Of a stretch of 64,000 nucleotides of DNA, positions 1 to 6,129 are shown one piece after another. Numbering within the stretch: position 1 is the first letter of the stretch; each line of letters starts with the position of its first letter. The position numbers were made by a program, and so were the translations under genes. The notes under the pieces are model-generated. The model was not told the origin of the DNA. It made no database searches and saw only the letters and a list, made by a program, of their open reading frames with translations. The stretch is from Candidatus Latescibacterota bacterium (GTDB lineage Bacteria; Latescibacterota; UBA2968), in assembly GCA_965208125.1 (NCBI GenBank), contig OZ242320.1, positions 2,464,001 to 2,528,000 of the forward strand. The letters run 5' to 3'.

Positions 1-1
1 G

Positions 2-1219
2 GACGCCCAGACAGACGAAAGGTTAAATCGTTACCAAAGCGTGATAGACTACAATATTCGGTCTGTATTGTGTGTGCCTGTATTCCATCTTAATGAAGGT
101 GTGATGGGTGCGCTATATGTGGATCATCGCGGCATGGGCAACGCATTTTCTGAAGCAGATCAGACGTTTTTACAGGCATTTGCGAATTTGGTGGGGGTGG
201 CGCTGGTCAATGCGAAGATGTATGAACAATTGAAAGAGAGAGCACAATATTTGCAGCAAGAGGTCGAAAGGCGGTACCAGCTTGGCGATATGTTTGGACA
301 TAGTGATGCGATGCAGGCGATCTACCGGCTTATCGAACGCGCGGCAAAGAGTGATGTTCCCGTGCTTGTGCAGGGCGAAACAGGTACGGGTAAAGAATTG
401 GCAGCGCGTGCCATACACTACAATAGCACGCGCAAAGACCAGCGTTTTTTGTCACAAAATTGTGCCACACTATCACCAGAGTTGTTGCAGAGTGAGTTGT
501 TTGGGCACAAAAAAGGCGCGTTTACTGGCGCAAATGAAGATCACATTGGGATTTTTGAGGCTGCCAATGGCGGTACGGTTTTTCTCGATGAAATCGCCGA
601 TGCCCCACCGCAGTTGCAAAGGAGTTTGTTGCGGGTGTTGCAAGAAGGGGAGATTCGGCGCGTGGGGGAAACAGTGGATCACACAGTAGATGTCCGCATT
701 ATTGCAGCGACCAATCGAGATTTAAAAGAGGAAGTAGAGAACGGCTCTTTTCGCGAAGATTTGTATTACCGCTTGCATGTGATTCAGATCGATATGCCGC
801 CTTTGCGGGAATACCTCGAAGATGTGCCATTATTGGCTGAACATCTACTCATTCGTGCAAAAGAAGAGGCAAACAAGTCGGTTGGGGGACTGACAGTGGG
901 TGCAATCAGGGCGCTCACAAGTTACAACTGGCCTGGCAATGTGCGCGAGTTGGAGAATGAGATTCGGCGGGCGGTGGCATTGGCAGAAGAAGAGGGGGAT
1001 ATTACGCCCGATTTGTTTTCAGAATCCATTGGGCATACAGTGTCAGATATTCCTGTCGAATTCCAGGGGCGTTTACAAGACCATGTCCAGGAGTATGAGA
1101 GACGGTTGATTCGAGCCGCACTCGAGAAATGCGATGGCAATATTACGCATACTGCCAGAGAATTGGGGATGACGCGCGTTGGTTTGCATAAGAAGATCAA
1201 TCGTCTGGGATTGAGATAG
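2..1219 (+). CDS. Sigma54-dependent enhancer-binding activator (GAF + AAA+ + Fis-type HTH), 5'-truncated by the window edge
   Basis: Walker A GETGTGKE, intact GAFTGA, Walker B FLDEI, FREDLYYRL, WPGNVRELEN, C-terminal HTH (GNITHTARELGM); GAF tail SVLCVP..GALYVDH. Frame is open from position 2. Confidence 0.95.
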   Translation, partial: DAQTDERLNRYQSVIDYNIRSVLCVPVFHLNEGVMGALYVDHRGMGNAFSEADQTFLQAFANLVGVALVNAKMYEQLKERAQYLQQEVERRYQLGDMFGHSDAMQAIYRLIERAAKSDVPVLVQGETGTGKELAARAIHYNSTRKDQRFLSQNCATLSPELLQSELFGHKKGAFTGANEDHIGIFEAANGGTVFLDEIADAPPQLQRSLLRVLQEGEIRRVGETVDHTVDVRIIAATNRDLKEEVENGSFREDLYYRLHVIQIDMPPLREYLEDVPLLAEHLLIRAKEEANKSVGGLTVGAIRALTSYNWPGNVRELENEIRRAVALAEEEGDITPDLFSESIGHTVSDIPVEFQGRLQDHVQEYERRLIRAALEKCDGNITHTARELGMTRVGLHKKINRLGLR

Positions 1220-1230
1220 GTGTGAAACCA

Positions 1231-1349
1231 GTGTATCCTTATATATACAGTATGTCCTATTGTTTACATTATTAATATCTATATAAATCAATTAGTTATG
1301 AGTATTTTATTTTATAAACGTTTGTAAGTGTATCCTTTCAGATACACTT
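1231..1349. promoter_or_regulatory. Two putative enhancer (UAS) palindromes TGTAT-N8-ATACA with an IHF-like site between them
   Basis: GTGTATCCTT repeated at 1231 and 1328; perfect 9-bp inverted repeat AAGTGTATC-N6-GATACACTT at 1326-1349; AATCAATTAGTTA at 1286-1298 matches WATCAANNNNTTR. Confidence 0.6.
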
Positions 1350-1456
1350 GTATCTGAATGTCGCATTTACAACACACGTAATTCTTAAATTTTATTTCCT
1401 TGTTTTTTTAAGCACTTGAGCTTTTTCAAGTGCTTTTTTTTTGATAGAACGATTTG

Positions 1457-1472
1457 TGGCACGAATTTTGCA
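1457..1472 (+). promoter_or_regulatory. Sigma54 (RpoN) -24/-12 promoter
   Basis: TGGCAC-GAATT-TTGCA is an exact match to TGGCAC-N5-TTGCW; it lies 47 nt before the peptide ATG and just downstream of a bEBP gene. Confidence 0.88.
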
Positions 1473-1519
1473 ATATGAAGGGCAGAGATAGCATTTAAAT
1501 TCTCAATAAGGAGGATACC

Positions 1520-1702
1520 ATGGCAACGCCACGCAAGTTGAATTTGATCAATGGAACGATAGATACAGAGGGTGATATTCAAACACTTCGGTCCGCAGAT
1601 AGTCTCAAAATTGGGGGATGTCCAGCTGGCTGGCCATCTGTTCCTCCCCTGCCTTTTCCCAATGACGATGACGATAGGGACGATCTTGAGCGCCCGGAGT
1701 GA
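1520..1702 (+). CDS. Putative RiPP precursor peptide (60 aa), SCIFF-like leader, single-Cys core
   Basis: Strong RBS AAGGAGG 5 nt before ATG; first ORF after the sigma54 promoter; 28 nt upstream of the rSAM/SPASM gene; RKLNLING...DSLKIGGC leader. Confidence 0.78.
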   Translation: MATPRKLNLINGTIDTEGDIQTLRSADSLKIGGCPAGWPSVPPLPFPNDDDDRDDLERPE

Positions 1703-1730
1703 ATCATCTCTGTCCTGAGGATTACCCGAC

Positions 1731-3161
1731 ATGCTGTGCATTCAAAAATGCGACATGCATCTTTTTCAAACTGAAGAACACAAACAGCCTGTTGCCTATC
1801 AGGTTGAGACGGGTCTGTTTTTTGAATTGGATCCCCATTTCCAGGCAATTTTAGCGTGTTGTGAGGGCTTGTCGGCTTCACAGGTTGTCCAGAGGTTGAC
1901 CGATCAATACGAGGCAGAGGAAATTGCCGAGGCCATTGAGGAATTGGTACAGGTGGGTTTGATTTCAGATGGTGCATTACCCTTGGTGTCCCAGGTGCCG
2001 ACGACAGAGGGGATGGCAGCCTGTGGGGTATCGCAGACAGATCGTTTGCAGGTGTCCTTGCACGTTTCGCATACGTGCAATATCCAATGTGCGTATTGCT
2101 TTGCTCACGGTGGAGATTATGGCGGTAAGGCTATGCTGATGCAATCCGATGTTGCCGAGCAAGCCATACGCTGGATCGTCACCGAGGCTCAGGTGTTCGG
2201 ACGGTGCCAGATTGATTTCTTTGGCGGGGAGCCGCTCTTGAATTTTCCATTGATTCAGGAGCTTGTCCCATTTGCCAAATCCCTGGGCGCGCGATTGGGT
2301 GTGCAGGTTGGTTTTGGTATTGTGACCAATGGCACGTTGTTGACTGACGAGATGAAGCAGTTTTTGGTTGATGAAAAGTTTCAGATTAAGGTCAGCCTGG
2401 ATGGTGGGCGCAAAACACAGGACCGCATTCGCAAGTTTCACAATGGTTCTGGCACTTATGATGTTGTGGCAAAGAATGTACAGAAATTGACTGATGAGGT
2501 GCCTGAGCGCGTGTATTTGCAGGCTATTATGACAGCGTATGATATGGACGAGGATCAGATTGCCGATGCGTTGCGTTCTCTGGGTACTGATAACGCGCTC
2601 ATCGGTCCGGCTGTTGTTTCACCTGATGCGCCTTATGCTATTGGGGAAGAACACATACCCGTTTTGAAGCAACAAATTTACAAGCGCAGCCGGCGTGCGC
2701 TCAAAGCCATTTTAAGTGGTGAAGAAAGTGAAGAGTTTGATCCGCGGATTCAAAAACTTTTGACGCGCGCAAAATCCTGTCACGGGTGCTTGGGTGGCAA
2801 GCAGTATTTGGCGATTGCAGCGGATGGGTCGATTTATTTTTGCTCGAGTTTGGCCGATGCGCCCGAGTTTAAGATGGGTGATGTGTTTTCGGGTATTGAT
2901 CGCGAAAAGCAGCAGCATTTTGACGCGCAGTTCAATGTGAATAATCGTCCTGAGTGCAAGACGTGCTGGGCGCGCAATTTGTGTGGTGGCGGGTGTCTTT
3001 GGGAGGCGAGGACGACGACGGGTGACCCAATGTATCCAAACCCTGTTGCTTGTGAACAGACGCGCTATCGCTATGAACTGGCGATGGAGATGTGTATGGA
3101 GATAGCAGAGGAGGATGCGTCTTTGTTGCAGCGACGATATGATCTGGAAGTGGCTTCATAA
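1731..3161 (+). CDS. Radical SAM/SPASM peptide maturase with N-terminal RRE-like domain (CteB/QhpD-like)
   Basis: CNIQCAYC, FFGGEPLL, TNGTLL, VSLDG; SPASM Cys set C..GxIYFC..CKTCWARNLCGGGC..C; ~100-aa N-terminal extension (HLFQ..VAYQVETGLFFELD..AIEELVQVGLI). Confidence 0.9.
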   Translation: MLCIQKCDMHLFQTEEHKQPVAYQVETGLFFELDPHFQAILACCEGLSASQVVQRLTDQYEAEEIAEAIEELVQVGLISDGALPLVSQVPTTEGMAACGVSQTDRLQVSLHVSHTCNIQCAYCFAHGGDYGGKAMLMQSDVAEQAIRWIVTEAQVFGRCQIDFFGGEPLLNFPLIQELVPFAKSLGARLGVQVGFGIVTNGTLLTDEMKQFLVDEKFQIKVSLDGGRKTQDRIRKFHNGSGTYDVVAKNVQKLTDEVPERVYLQAIMTAYDMDEDQIADALRSLGTDNALIGPAVVSPDAPYAIGEEHIPVLKQQIYKRSRRALKAILSGEESEEFDPRIQKLLTRAKSCHGCLGGKQYLAIAADGSIYFCSSLADAPEFKMGDVFSGIDREKQQHFDAQFNVNNRPECKTCWARNLCGGGCLWEARTTTGDPMYPNPVACEQTRYRYELAMEMCMEIAEEDASLLQRRYDLEVAS

Positions 3162-3226
3162 ACCACTGGAGGAGCAGGATCAGAACAGGTCTCCTGGTAT
3201 ATTCCCTGACCCGGGACGCCTGTTTC

Positions 3227-3271
3227 AAGCATACAGGTGTGACGAATATCTATTGTCAGGCCTGTATGCTT
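3227..3271. repeat. Intergenic stem-loop between maturase and methyltransferase
   Basis: AAGCATACAGG (3227-3237) / CCTGTATGCTT (3261-3271) with inner TGAC/GTCA pairing; no U-tract. Confidence 0.55.
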
Positions 3272-3317
3272 AAAGCCGCCACGCGCATGCCAAAGTAATC
3301 CAATAGAGAAGTGAGAA

Positions 3318-4226
3318 ATGCATAAAATTTCAGACCTCAAAATACCGGATCGGCTTAATCTGAATGCAGGTTGGAGCATTGGTGAGACGGCGTTTGAGAG
3401 AATTAGAACCACGCTTCTTGAGATGTCCCCAGTAGAAAGAATTCTCGAATTTGGGAGTGGTCCGAGTTCTGTCCGGCTGGCTATGGCGTTTCCCGAAGCG
3501 CAGGTTTTGTCTGTGGAAGGTGATTGGCGGAATTTTGCAGAGACCACGAGTCTGATGCGATCATTCTGGGATCAACACAATCTATCGATCAAATATCGTC
3601 CGATTACTCTTGAATCTTATGGAGACGCGGAATTTTTGACTTATGAATATGGGATGTTCTGGGAGGAAGAGATAGATTGCGTGATTATTGATGGTCCACC
3701 TGTCTATACCTTGCGAGGTCGAGAAGCCTGTCTCTACCAGGTTTATGATCAGGTCAAGATTGGTGGTCTGGTCATCCTGGACGATTTCAGAAGGTCTTAT
3801 GAGAAGCAAATTGTCGAGAACTGGCTGTCCGTCTATCCCGGCAGTTTTACAGTGGAAATGATCCGCGAAGACCACCATCTGGCCGTGTTGCGTAAGATCA
3901 AATCTGTGACACCGTGTTGGGATGCGCCTTATAGGCTTTCGGATGTTCAGTCTGTCAGCGAAACGCTCTCCCGCATTACACAGGCATTATCGCAGGTTGA
4001 TGATGTGTATTTGAGAACGCTGGCCAAAGCGAATAATTGCTCTGAAACAGATCTGATTGGCCTGTTCAATACCATTCGCAACATCTATGGGGTGACGCCT
4101 GAGCGCATCCAGGAGTTCATGAGCGGAAATTCTATACTTTCACCAGACGTTCAAAAAAGAAAACAGAATGCCTGTTATATGACAATCGTCAACGCGTTTT
4201 TTCGAGACGCTCAGTTTTCACATTAA
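3318..4226 (+). CDS. Class I SAM-dependent methyltransferase (Methyltransf_24-like) with C-terminal extension
   Basis: ILEFGSGPSS, VLSVE, VIIDGPP, GGLVILDDF motifs. Confidence 0.8.
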   Translation: MHKISDLKIPDRLNLNAGWSIGETAFERIRTTLLEMSPVERILEFGSGPSSVRLAMAFPEAQVLSVEGDWRNFAETTSLMRSFWDQHNLSIKYRPITLESYGDAEFLTYEYGMFWEEEIDCVIIDGPPVYTLRGREACLYQVYDQVKIGGLVILDDFRRSYEKQIVENWLSVYPGSFTVEMIREDHHLAVLRKIKSVTPCWDAPYRLSDVQSVSETLSRITQALSQVDDVYLRTLAKANNCSETDLIGLFNTIRNIYGVTPERIQEFMSGNSILSPDVQKRKQNACYMTIVNAFFRDAQFSH

Positions 4227-4394
4227 AGAAAGTGAATACAAAATGAGGAAAAGTCCAACGGCTGCGGGATGTTTTTCTGGATTTTTCCAGAAAAATTAAG
4301 GATCGGTCCTCCCATCCCGCAGTCTATTTAATGACCGATAGCCGGTATAATATTGAGTAGCAGGTAAATAGAAAACTACATTTCAATTTGGAAC

Positions 4395-4425
4395 CCAACG
4401 GTCTCCACTAAACCGTTGGTTTTTT
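4395..4425 (+). terminator. Putative intrinsic terminator closing the RiPP operon
   Basis: CCAACGGT-9 nt-ACCGTTGG followed by T6. Confidence 0.55.
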
Positions 4426-4478
4426 CTGTTAGGGCTTTGCATTCAAAAGTTCAAGGTGTGAGCAAAAGGAGACCTAAA

Positions 4479-5873
4479 ATGAAGAGAATACTTGGCATAG
4501 CCATGGTCGTTCTCGTTCTCGTCTTTCTTGTGTACGGAAACTATTCCAGGATTGATCCGGCCGTTCCCGACCTCAAAGTTCGCGAACTCCCGCCTCTTAC
4601 GGTGCCGCCATCGACAATTACGATTCCATTCTCCTTTCCAATCCAAGCTATCGGAGATGCATTGGAACAAGAGATCCCGAGGACTCAGGACGGCACAGAG
4701 AGTTGGGTGGGGAGGATTCTCGGCATCAAAACAAGCATCTCAGTAGATTGGCGGGTTGAAAGGGATGGCATAAGCATCTCCGGAGGCGAAGATAAAATTA
4801 GGACCAGGACTAGATTGAGTGCCGAGGTGGAAGCAAGAAATGTGGAAATCGCAGACATTACAGGAAATCTCAGAGCGACTATGAGGCCGAAACTGAATTC
4901 GAATTGGCGCCTTAATCCTCAACTGACAACGAATATTAACTTGTCAACAGCCAATCTACTCAGATTCATTAGTGTACGAGGGTTACTTGAACCTGAACTC
5001 AACCAAAGACTTAGTAATATTAGCAGTGACTTTAATAATAAGTTAAGCCGCGACGATTTCATAGAGAAAGCCGTCAGACAACAGTGGCATGAGATTTGCC
5101 GTTCCTTTCCTATTAGCCCGGATTCAAGTATTTGGCTAGAGGTAAAGCCAGTAGCTGTTCGATCAGCACAGCCCATAGTTGATACCCAAAATGTCTACTT
5201 GCAGTTCAGTCTTGACGCGGAGACACAGATCGTCGAGACGCAGACCCAACCACAATGCACTTTCCCTGACAGTCTAATTATAGAAGACTCACAGCCCGGT
5301 TACTTCAAAATCGTTCTACCCGCTGCATTGGAGTACGATACCTTAGAAGCCTTTCTAAAGAAAAAATTTGCGGGCAAAACCGTTGATAAAGATGTTTCAG
5401 TGAGGATTAATGCTGTTAACATCCTTTCAGATGGCGAGGTGATTGTATTAGGTGTCAAGTTGACCTTGAAGGCTAATGGTTGGTTCGGACCTCGGGCTCA
5501 AGGAATAGTTTATCTTTCAGCTAAACCCCATCTTAATGTCGATAGACAAGAGATTATACTTACAAAGTTACAACTCGATATAGAATCTCGAAACGCACTT
5601 GTCACCATTTTTGGAGAAGCCGCAGAATCAGTACTATTGGTTGCTCTTGGCGACGAGATAGTATTTGACCTTAGCCCCAAATTGGAAGAGGCCCGAGACA
5701 GGGCGCAGCAAGCCCTGAATGCGATATCGACGGACGAACTTCTGGTTGAAGGGCAGTTGAGTGAGATCCGAATAACGAGTCTTGATGTGGGGACCGACAG
5801 ATTACGCCTTGTCACTACTGCTCAAGGAGGGGCTGTAGCTTCTGCAAAAAAAATTTCATGGAGTTCGAACTGA
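4479..5873 (+). CDS. DUF4403-like membrane-anchored protein
   Basis: AGGAG RBS before ATG 4479; N-terminal hydrophobic anchor; PSTITIPFSFP..LEQEIP start and repeated beta-rich halves typical of DUF4403. Confidence 0.65.
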   Translation: MKRILGIAMVVLVLVFLVYGNYSRIDPAVPDLKVRELPPLTVPPSTITIPFSFPIQAIGDALEQEIPRTQDGTESWVGRILGIKTSISVDWRVERDGISISGGEDKIRTRTRLSAEVEARNVEIADITGNLRATMRPKLNSNWRLNPQLTTNINLSTANLLRFISVRGLLEPELNQRLSNISSDFNNKLSRDDFIEKAVRQQWHEICRSFPISPDSSIWLEVKPVAVRSAQPIVDTQNVYLQFSLDAETQIVETQTQPQCTFPDSLIIEDSQPGYFKIVLPAALEYDTLEAFLKKKFAGKTVDKDVSVRINAVNILSDGEVIVLGVKLTLKANGWFGPRAQGIVYLSAKPHLNVDRQEIILTKLQLDIESRNALVTIFGEAAESVLLVALGDEIVFDLSPKLEEARDRAQQALNAISTDELLVEGQLSEIRITSLDVGTDRLRLVTTAQGGAVASAKKISWSSN

Positions 5874-5964
5874 TCGAAAGCCGGGATGACAACGCCGTTG
5901 CCGGAAAGGCTACTTCTAATGTGAAATAAATCAATAGTCTCATCACCGTTGGTTTGGACTTTAA

Positions 5965-6129
5965 GAAGCTGTCTTAAAATTATTTTGAACAGGCCTGACA
6001 CATTTACGCAAACTGTGGGTCGATAGCGGCTATCTCGGTGAAGACTTCAAGGAATGAGACGCAAAACGGAAAGCGCACGTATAAAATTGATACCGGCTCG
6101 CTTAATTACATGGGTTTTAAGACAGCTTC
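5965..6129. mobile_element. 165-bp MITE / internally deleted IS
   Basis: Perfect 15-bp terminal inverted repeats GAAGCTGTCTTAAAA (5965-5979) / TTTTAAGACAGCTTC (6115-6129), flanked by TAA direct repeats (5962-5964, 6130-6132); no transposase ORF. Confidence 0.75.

Follow-up and report, generated by a model that had tools for sequence, protein, structure and literature searches.

A sigma-54-associated locus of Latescibacterota encodes a CteB-like radical SAM maturase and a single-cysteine precursor peptide on which it probably acts

INTRODUCTION

Ranthipeptides of the SCIFF type (six Cys in forty-five residues; TIGR03974) are the closest described counterparts of the locus analyzed here, a candidate operon for a peptide made by the ribosome and modified post-translationally (RiPP) at positions 2 to 4425 of a 64,000-nucleotide stretch of a Candidatus Latescibacterota bacterium genome (assembly GCA_965208125.1, contig OZ242320.1, positions 2,464,001 to 2,528,000; this whole stretch is called the window). 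The source genome is a single contig of 5.75 Mb. In the SCIFF systems CteB/CteA and Tte1186/Tte1186a, the precursor gene lies immediately upstream of the gene for a radical S-adenosylmethionine (SAM) maturase, in a cluster without protease or exporter. According to PMC10177961, CteB ligates its radical SAM cluster through C104/C108/C111, auxiliary cluster 1 (AC1) through C344/C362/C413, and auxiliary cluster 2 (AC2) through C400/C403/C409/C432; PapB and Tte1186 have the same cluster scheme, substrate interacts with AC1, and Tte1186 makes a single cross-link.

The Latescibacterota maturase shares with CteB (solved structure 5WGG) and Tte1186 full-length homology that includes the N-terminal RiPP recognition element (RRE), an identical CX3CX2C motif, and a seven-Cys SPASM domain with a three-Cys AC1, and its gene cluster has the same order and likewise contains neither protease nor exporter. 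It differs from the SCIFF systems in several respects: the enzyme is about 31-34% identical to theirs and belongs to a separate clade, in the precursor a single conserved Cys and a core of Pro and aromatic residues take the place of six Cys in forty-five residues, the host belongs to Latescibacterota rather than Firmicutes, and a dedicated sigma-54 activator is coupled to the pair. Judged by sequence, the system operates like a ranthipeptide one; because the enzyme falls below the SCIFF equivalog cut-off and the precursor has a single conserved Cys, we file the locus as a new clade and variant and not as SCIFF.

QhpD and the nif11 maturases obtain hidden Markov model scores similar to that of SCIFF, also below their cut-offs, and the neighborhood contains neither dehydrogenase subunit genes nor a nif11-type leader; the neighbors are the activator, a methyltransferase-like gene, and a DUF4403 gene. 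QhpC carries Cys-to-side-chain thioethers. The streptococcal RaS-RiPPs are reportedly made by radical SAM RiPP operons under shp/rgg quorum-sensing control, and both they and the present locus are small operons with a dedicated adjoining signal-responsive regulator and many paralogous variants, although in place of Rgg the present locus has a kinase-STAND-TPR-GAF sigma-54 activator.

For sponge-associated Latescibacterota metagenome-assembled genomes, antiSMASH calls of "ranthipeptide" and "RRE-containing" have been reported as cluster types only, and the accessible part of PMC12993501 gives no precursor, regulator, or family for them; our locus, from the same phylum, would probably receive the same automatic label. 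In the literature searched we found no description of the precursor family or of sigma-54/kinase-STAND control of such operons. A sequence-only reading of this DNA had matched the core of the locus to no recognized class. This holds for the precursor family and its coupling to the regulator but not for the enzyme, which belongs to a known, ranthipeptide-like class; what is new is the precursor family and, alongside it, a clade of CteB-like maturases that stands apart, both in an uncultured phylum.

RESULTS

A compact locus with a conserved core

We hold with fair confidence that the locus is a compact sigma-54-dependent RiPP operon whose CteB-like maturase probably forms a single thioether on its precursor. 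All elements listed in the sequence-only reading were confirmed at their positions and, by the open reading frame (ORF) listing and the raw sequence, all lie co-oriented on the plus strand, in the order 3' part of the activator gene, terminator, promoter, 60-amino-acid (aa) ORF, radical SAM/SPASM gene, methyltransferase-like gene, and two hairpins, with an AT-rich region between the activator and the 60-codon ORF. The conserved core consists of activator, peptide, and maturase:

2..1219, plus strand: activator 3' part (end of GAF, AAA+ with GAFTGA, HTH_8; Pfam)
1457..1472, plus strand: sigma-54 promoter, -24 TGGCAC / -12 TTGCA (pattern search)
1508..1514, plus strand: ribosome-binding site AAGGAGG (sequence; conserved in alignment)
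1520..1702, plus strand: precursor peptide ORF, 60 aa (31-member alignment, substitution rates)
1731..3161, plus strand: RRE-radical SAM/SPASM maturase, 476 aa (Pfam, NCBIfam, PDB)

The maturase belongs to a CteB-like family of its own

Pfam assigns PqqD (RRE), Radical_SAM, and SPASM domains to the maturase, and the N-terminal extension that had been noticed beforehand contains the RRE, which PqqD matches at residues ~21-74 (nt 1791-1952) with 24.2 bits against a cut-off of 23.4. Ten Cys are invariant in 26 family members and map one-to-one onto the CteB ligands given above: C116/C120/C123 of the CX3CX2C motif onto those of the radical SAM cluster, C353, C371, and C422 onto those of AC1, and C409, C412, C418, and C441 onto those of AC2. 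With three Cys, AC1 would therefore have an open iron site.

The best NCBIfam scores were those of SCIFF (260.3 bits, cut-off 425), QhpD (TIGR03906; 255 bits, cut-off 453), nif11 (254 bits, cut-off 519), and PapB (230 bits). Membership among the anaerobic sulfatase-maturating enzymes (anSMEs), which would have spoken against the sequence-only reading, is contradicted by these comparisons: the anSME model TIGR03942 reached 113.4 bits against a cut-off of 349, compared with 253-260 bits for SCIFF, QhpD, and nif11, and a family-profile search of the PDB gave 304 bits for CteB (1.7e-89) and 90 bits for anSME (1e-24). With phmmer, the best solved relative was again CteB (5WGG, 6.7e-58 over residues 24-452). 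A search of 5.8 billion proteins recovered the family at 39-92% identity (~65 matches), with a clear gap to SCIFF maturases (at most 34%), and in a quick tree its 26 rows split from 28 SCIFF-like rows with a Shimodaira-Hasegawa-like approximate likelihood ratio test (SH-aLRT) support of 96, which suggests a clade separate from the SCIFF type. Metagenome contigs scanned with the family alignment yielded, among the matches listed, only SCIFF-type loci of 28-35% identity, and 3 of 80 loci from a wider genome-contig scan belonged to the family.

Across 168 genomes of the phylum, a match at E <= 1e-60 was present in 26, namely 16 of the 21 in the window's genus (the source genome included), nine in five other genera, and one outlier that, at 30% identity, was left out of the family. 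Genomes of the window's genus usually carry 2-3 copies. The source genome has a second copy, 92% identical, in a locus of the same layout: an activator of 1602 aa, the terminator again, then TGGCACGGATCTTGCA, a 59-aa peptide that differs in its middle but keeps the leader and tail, and the radical SAM gene. This genome contains exactly two full activator genes of the kinase-STAND type, one beside each of its two peptide-maturase pairs.

A third locus of the source genome, outside the window (G000:C1:1800400-1801890), is degenerate and has neither peptide nor radical SAM gene; it retains the terminator hairpin of the other loci along with a sigma-54 promoter (TGGCACGCATCTTGCT at 1800451), an unrelated 56-aa ORF, a stretch resembling an out-of-frame radical SAM 3' end, and a copy of the methyltransferase-like gene (81% identical). 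At four distant loci, a second, very divergent radical SAM-like gene (23-30% identity) lies downstream of the family enzyme (L203:9542-11023, L208:10298-11689, L209:5163-6563, L210:8974-10440); two of these genes are set off from it by another gene or ~900 nt, and the quick tree places all four, on long branches, as sister to the family (SH-aLRT 98).

A single-cysteine precursor family precedes the maturase gene

The sequence-only reading had set a conserved upstream peptide as a test beforehand, and a related ORF is recognizable just upstream of the maturase gene in all 33 distinct homologous loci, from six genera, in which we inspected 700 nt of upstream sequence. Left out of this count were two loci cut at the enzyme (L106, L107) and the 30%-identical outlier (L109). 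Thirty-one of the 33 peptides are intact and make up precursor alignment A2; of the other two, that of L093 runs off a contig end and that of L103 is frameshifted, with leader and core in different frames.

In the window, the peptide consists of the leader MATPRKLNLINGTIDTEGDI, a variable block around the single Cys34 (GGCPAGWPS), and the conserved tail VPPLPFPNDDDD. The strong ribosome-binding site described earlier is indeed there, AAGGAGG 5 nt ahead of the ATG, and the alignment shows it conserved among same-genus loci. Type I precursors, those of the window's genus, read M-A-T-R-R-K-L-x-L-I-N-G-x-x-D...G-C-x6-V-P-P-L-P-F-P-D-D-D-D-W-D-D-F, and type II precursors ...I-N-G-x-x-D-x-x-G-R-I...C-x-W-P-x-F-P-x-L-P-P-P; three more distant peptides (type III; L104, L105, L108), tentatively assigned to the family, have ...L-S-C... 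followed by aromatic and Pro residues. The family pattern is thus one conserved Cys, the sole residue common to every core, and then a block rich in Pro and aromatic residues.

Among 22 same-genus copies, the ratio of nonsynonymous to synonymous substitution rates (dN/dS) is lowest in the VPPLPFP-acidic tail (0.10) and highest in the Cys block (0.64), with values of 0.24 for the leader and 0.38 for the linker; the precursor gene is translated and under selection, and its middle diversifies. The A2 profile, run against 1.84 billion representative proteins, matched 21, all but two of them 47-75 aa long; the 18 that were fetched all belong to the precursor family, which in this search is essentially confined to Latescibacterota. 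No Pfam or NCBIfam model matches the 60-aa precursor, and an NCBIfam scan of the 31 precursors (E <= 1) gave one spurious match and 0/31 relevant ones, in keeping with the earlier view that this is not a six-Cys SCIFF peptide.

Some copies are irregular. Six precursors (P0127, P0132, P0133, P0137, P0141, and L103) keep the leader and lose the frame of the core, or the reverse, and represent either assembly indel errors or decaying copies. At L097 (G089:C1:3978695-3983128), the precursor ends after a DDDDDDF stretch, and a 52-aa ORF (...LAYLSLLYAIWGNEVRSEALRTMM...) is inserted between this shortened precursor and the radical SAM gene, ~135-294 nt upstream of the start of the latter; a small ORF homologous to it comes after the sigma-54 promoter of the source genome's third locus.

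The modeled leader rests on the RRE

We modeled the enzyme-precursor complex from the enzyme alignment A1 and the precursor alignment A2 with three 4Fe-4S clusters and SAM. The interface score ipSAE was 0.85 in three runs and 0.00-0.02 in controls (the mark used is reached by 58 of 80 solved complexes and by 2 of 110 mismatched pairs), the runs had at least 56% of contacts in common, and the per-residue confidence (predicted local distance difference test, pLDDT) of the partner was at least 49. On the peptide side the confident contacts involve residues 5-14 (R-K-L-N-L-I-N-G-T-I) and 20-27, and on the enzyme side residues 21, 28-34, and 68-75 of the PqqD-like domain plus 343-346 and 452-476, with leader residues 5-14 resting on RRE residues 28-34 and 68-75. 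From this model we infer that the conserved leader motif binds the RRE of the maturase.

A sigma-54 promoter and a dedicated activator

Apart from the promoter sequence TGGCACGAATTTTGCA, no exact TGGCAC-N5-TTGCW occurs in the window; the expected number is 0.05, and 5 of 100 shuffles had at least one match. The same element precedes the paralogous peptide, and there are 40 exact copies genome-wide. The -24 GG and -12 GC are correctly spaced, the genome encodes sigma-54 (rpoN), and a GAFTGA activator adjoins the operon. Sigma-54 control, as previously proposed, is supported by an exact promoter, a genomic rpoN, a neighboring conserved activator, and the conserved architecture of promoter and upstream activator sequence (UAS). 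Four further elements lie upstream of the promoter:

1231..1250, no strand: distal imperfect palindrome copy, candidate activator site (sequence, same-genus alignment)
1286..1298, no strand: motif AATCAATTAGTTA, likened to that of integration host factor (IHF) (conserved intergenic block)
1326..1349, no strand: perfect palindrome, candidate UAS (8/8 arm match)
1410..1442 (hairpin 1410-1435), plus strand: intrinsic terminator, 11-bp stem and T-run (fold z -3.5)

In 2..1219, Pfam finds the C terminus of a GAF domain, Sigma54_activat (4.5e-71), in which the GAFTGA loop reads KKGAFTGA, and HTH_8. These are the C-terminal 405 aa of an activator whose gene extends beyond the window; in full (L003:3938-7219) it encodes 1093 aa with the Pfam order Pkinase (Ser/Thr kinase), AAA_16/STAND ATPase, GAF, Sigma54_activat AAA+, and HTH_8, and the paralogous activator of 1602 aa additionally has a TPR/MalT-like block. 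By tblastn, the kinase-STAND-TPR-GAF activator lies directly upstream and co-oriented in 22 of the 23 distinct loci with 6-8 kb flanks: in 15/15 same-genus loci (three with apparent frameshifts or an insertion) and in 7/8 loci of other genera (one split by an insertion). The exception, L210 (G071:C1:2097347-2114333), has no activator within 8 kb and an ISL3-family transposase upstream; its radical SAM gene is split near residue 138, and the locus is probably decayed. Searching with the activator N terminus returned homologues of which the best 120 are all at least 82% identical, and the literature matches listed contained no paper on fusions of kinase, STAND, and enhancer-binding protein (EBP).

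Same-genus loci share a conserved intergenic order of stop codon, palindrome(s), AT-rich block with the IHF-like motif, second palindrome, terminator, -24/-12 element, and ribosome-binding site. The perfect palindrome is AAGTGTATCC-TTTC-AGATACACTT, and the distal copy, GTGTATCC...ATACAG, falls in an aligned block; judged from sequence, the former is a candidate UAS for the helix-turn-helix (HTH) of the neighboring activator and the latter a candidate binding site. AATCAATTAGTTA falls in the conserved block 'TTATATaAaTCAa.tA.TTATg', and we take it, as a lead only, to resemble the IHF consensus WATCAANNNNTTR. The terminator between the activator gene and the promoter, conserved across same-genus loci, insulates the operon from the activator gene. 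Rfam matched nothing in positions 1-6000 (E <= 0.1), which leaves the intergenic conservation and the hairpin at 4260-4324 described below unaccounted for by any known riboswitch or leader RNA.

Across 22 same-genus loci, the palindromes vary on both arms and track the C-terminal HTH helix of the activator. Activators with '...TRAGLQKKINRLGLR' ('AGLQ') go with a GTGCATCC-type palindrome in 7/7 loci, a type seen in 0/15 others; loci with '...TRVGLHKK...' have palindromes of GTGTATCC or GTGTAAAC type, and loci with '...VRASLYRKM...' have TGTGTATCTATTAGATACACA. The window locus combines VGLH with AAGTGTATCCTTTCAGATACACTT (1326-1349), and the paralogue of the source genome combines AGLQ with GTGCATCC; since HTH and palindrome types differ together, the two loci look insulated from one another. 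Since all these loci are kin, as few as two or three evolutionary events may lie behind the counts. In a comparison of 11 full-length activators from the genus, mean identity is 0.77 in the TPR region and in the HTH and 0.86 in the kinase, GAF, and AAA+ domains.

Two other groups of genes resemble parts of this activator. A second, shorter sigma-54 activator, its AAA+ domain ~40% identical to that of the large one, lies 120-1200 nt past the radical SAM gene in loci without an adjoining methyltransferase-like gene (L004:12895-13815, L005:8641-9561, L197:9546-10508, L199:9603-10523, L201:9596-10519), and at the paralogous locus of the source genome it follows the methyltransferase-like gene. Elsewhere in the source genome, outside the window (G000:C1:3685076-3698938), seven tandem co-oriented ORFs of 582-837 aa each have a protein-kinase domain ~32-35% identical to the activator kinase.

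Relatives of the locus occur in RNA libraries

Relatives 85-99% identical to the locus were found in four RNA-library runs from two studies. One contig (X18 record 9, 1618 nt) extends from shortly upstream of the peptide ATG, across the peptide, and into the radical SAM gene as far as window position 3100, and its loose end shows the ribosome-binding site and the ATG; another, from a close relative (X20 record 28, 821 nt), bridges the radical SAM 3' end and the methyltransferase-like gene. Contigs in X18 and X19, two runs of one study, stop 44-47 nt before 1532, near 1485-1488 and thus a few bases past the expected sigma-54 start, which is a weak hint, as contigs cannot show starts. Positions 1200-1523 had no contig at >= 85% likeness; this should not be read as silence, since the intergenic stretch has diverged further and the contigs were filtered.

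The methyltransferase-like gene appears to be accessory

The 3' part of the locus contains three features:

3318..4226, plus strand: Methyltransf_24-like protein, 302 aa (Pfam sub-threshold, PDB, atlas)
4260..4324, plus strand: strong branched hairpin without T-run, between this gene and the terminator (-38 kcal/mol, z -4.9)
4395..4425, plus strand: terminator-like hairpin (4395-4419) and U6, operon end (z -2.2, weak on its own)

The terminator-like hairpin had been pointed out before, as had a co-oriented methyltransferase gene; the gene is present, and its label is weak. Methyltransf_24 (PF13578) matches with E 0.002 and 19.4 bits against a gathering cut-off of 26.3, and the PDB O-methyltransferase 2gpy matches residues 32-82 weakly (E 5.4e-4). 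The protein has a G-x-G-x-G-like motif (LEFGSGPSS), its nearest atlas clusters are Methyltransf_24 in 24 of 30 cases, and its AlphaFold2 model (mean pLDDT 38.9, predicted template modeling score 0.26) is too poor for use. From its sequence, the protein probably has a class I SAM methyltransferase fold with a C-terminal extension of ~100 aa.

The sequence-only reading had described a full four-gene system, in which this protein would be an obligatory tailoring enzyme; of that system, activator, peptide, and maturase form the core, and the fourth gene stands outside it, in 0/8 loci of other genera. We consider an obligatory role possible but rather doubtful. The gene is co-oriented and at most 500 nt downstream of the radical SAM gene in 8 of 15 same-genus loci, the RNA-library contig of a relative joins it to the radical SAM 3' end, and the third genomic copy, too, is preceded by a sigma-54 promoter and a remnant of that 3' end. 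Against this, it is ~3 kb away in two same-genus loci and not found within 6-8 kb in five of the 15 and in all eight loci of other genera, and the Pfam score and structural model just described argue in the same direction. The best 120 of 278 homologues, all named hypothetical, are at least 81% identical, so the family is young and genus-restricted. Rather than as an obligatory part, we treat the gene as a lineage-specific accessory that may have a tailoring role. Other downstream genes vary by locus: DUF4403 here and, elsewhere, a propeller-like protein, glycosyltransferases, or the second, divergent radical SAM gene.

DISCUSSION

Our results lead us to propose the following sequence of events. 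A signal would act on the adjoining Ser/Thr kinase-STAND-(TPR)-GAF enhancer-binding protein, which would bind the palindromes at ~1231-1250 and 1326-1349 and switch on sigma-54 RNA polymerase at 1457-1472, and the resulting transcript would code for the 60-aa precursor, the CteB-like maturase and, in this genus, the methyltransferase-like protein. The N-terminal RRE of the maturase may then hold the leader motif K-L-x-L-I-N-G while Cys34 probably ligates the open iron site of AC1, and a 5'-deoxyadenosyl radical would take a hydrogen from a residue downstream of Cys34. The outcome would be one intramolecular thioether macrocycle (-2 Da), a ranthipeptide-like product; in ranthipeptides as a class, a Cys sulfur is joined to a non-alpha carbon in another residue. 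By analogy with the described systems, a single Cys thioether of the ranthipeptide type is the most likely chemistry, and we propose the involvement of AC1 because PMC10177961 gives both the PapB/Tte1186 cluster scheme and the interaction of substrate with AC1.

The same precursor-maturase pair might instead support another radical chemistry, such as a cyclophane-type C-C cross-link within the block rich in aromatic residues and Pro, epimerization, or Cys oxidation of the sulfatase-maturase kind, with the Cys serving only as a cluster ligand or recognition element, which we regard as unlikely. In most precursors aromatic residues do lie near the Cys: many type I cores have W at +4, all 12 of type II have W at +2 together with F/W at +5, and two of type III have F at +4. 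Every type I core has Pro at +1 or +2, which recalls C-x-P, the sulfatase motif, and the SPASM enzymes YhhB, FxsB, and DynA also score against the maturase, at 73-94 bits. However, thioether formers are by far the closest families (230-260 bits compared with 73-113), the three-Cys AC1 pattern is that of CteB, PapB, and Tte1186, and Cys is the sole residue that every core has in common.

Several observations nevertheless weigh against a thioether-forming, sigma-54-dependent operon as we describe it. The product is predicted by analogy, and the three precursor subtypes have no conserved acceptor residue in common, so the cross-link partner and even the type of reaction may differ among them. The maturase is under the curated cut-off of every NCBIfam maturase model (260 bits at best, compared with 425). 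In the complex model, the precursor core including Cys34 is not confidently placed, and since a solved CteB-peptide structure exists, the favorable interface score may come from likeness to it. As the sequence-only reading had noted, no protease or exporter is conserved near the radical SAM gene among the loci examined, and leader removal and export are therefore left without explanation. The RNA-library contigs carry no strand information, and contaminating DNA is a possible source of them. Finally, the activator in the window is without ~530 residues, comprising the TPR/MalT-like block and the start of GAF, that the other 14 same-genus copies and the paralogue of the source genome keep. This copy may therefore be deregulated or defective; the shortened, in-frame protein could be constitutive, inactive, or an assembly artefact.

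A broader possibility, which we think quite unlikely to hold as stated, is that each locus constitutes a self-contained orthogonal peptide-signaling module: the hypervariable peptide, with its thioether, would be sensed directly or once exported by the TPR/STAND part of its own kinase-EBP, which would drive its own sigma-54 promoter in a STAND/sigma-54 circuit for autoinduction or kin discrimination. The 2-3 paralogous loci per genome and the one-to-one placement of activators beside peptide-maturase pairs in the source genome would fit such an arrangement, as would the finding that the fastest-diverging parts are the Cys block of the peptide, the TPR region, and the HTH (77% identity for each of the latter two), in contrast to the kinase, GAF, and AAA+ domains (86%) and the enzyme (~91%). 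The tracking of palindrome variants by HTH variants fits as well, with the reservation that the loci are related and the counts are not independent.

That the short ORF is no substrate at all but a chance frame or a regulatory leader, the enzyme acting on another protein or a small molecule, is very improbable: its product is so far only predicted, and the type III peptides share just a few motifs with the others, but a peptide stands in 33/33 loci with conservation at the amino acid level and dN/dS well below 1 in leader and tail, the enzyme has an RRE with which the modeled leader makes specific contacts, and peptides and enzymes are equal in number in the genome.

The locus introduces a previously undescribed precursor family with a single Cys and a Pro/aromatic core. 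Because its substrate is so simple, with only one Cys, it would be a clean test case for the choice of acceptor by SPASM enzymes with a three-Cys AC1. It is unusual among RiPPs for peptide and maturase to be paired one-to-one with a 1600-aa kinase-STAND-TPR-GAF sigma-54 activator and for DNA sites to covary with the regulator, and together these features provide a testable hypothesis, namely, that these bacteria may maintain their paralogous loci as insulated regulatory or signaling modules.

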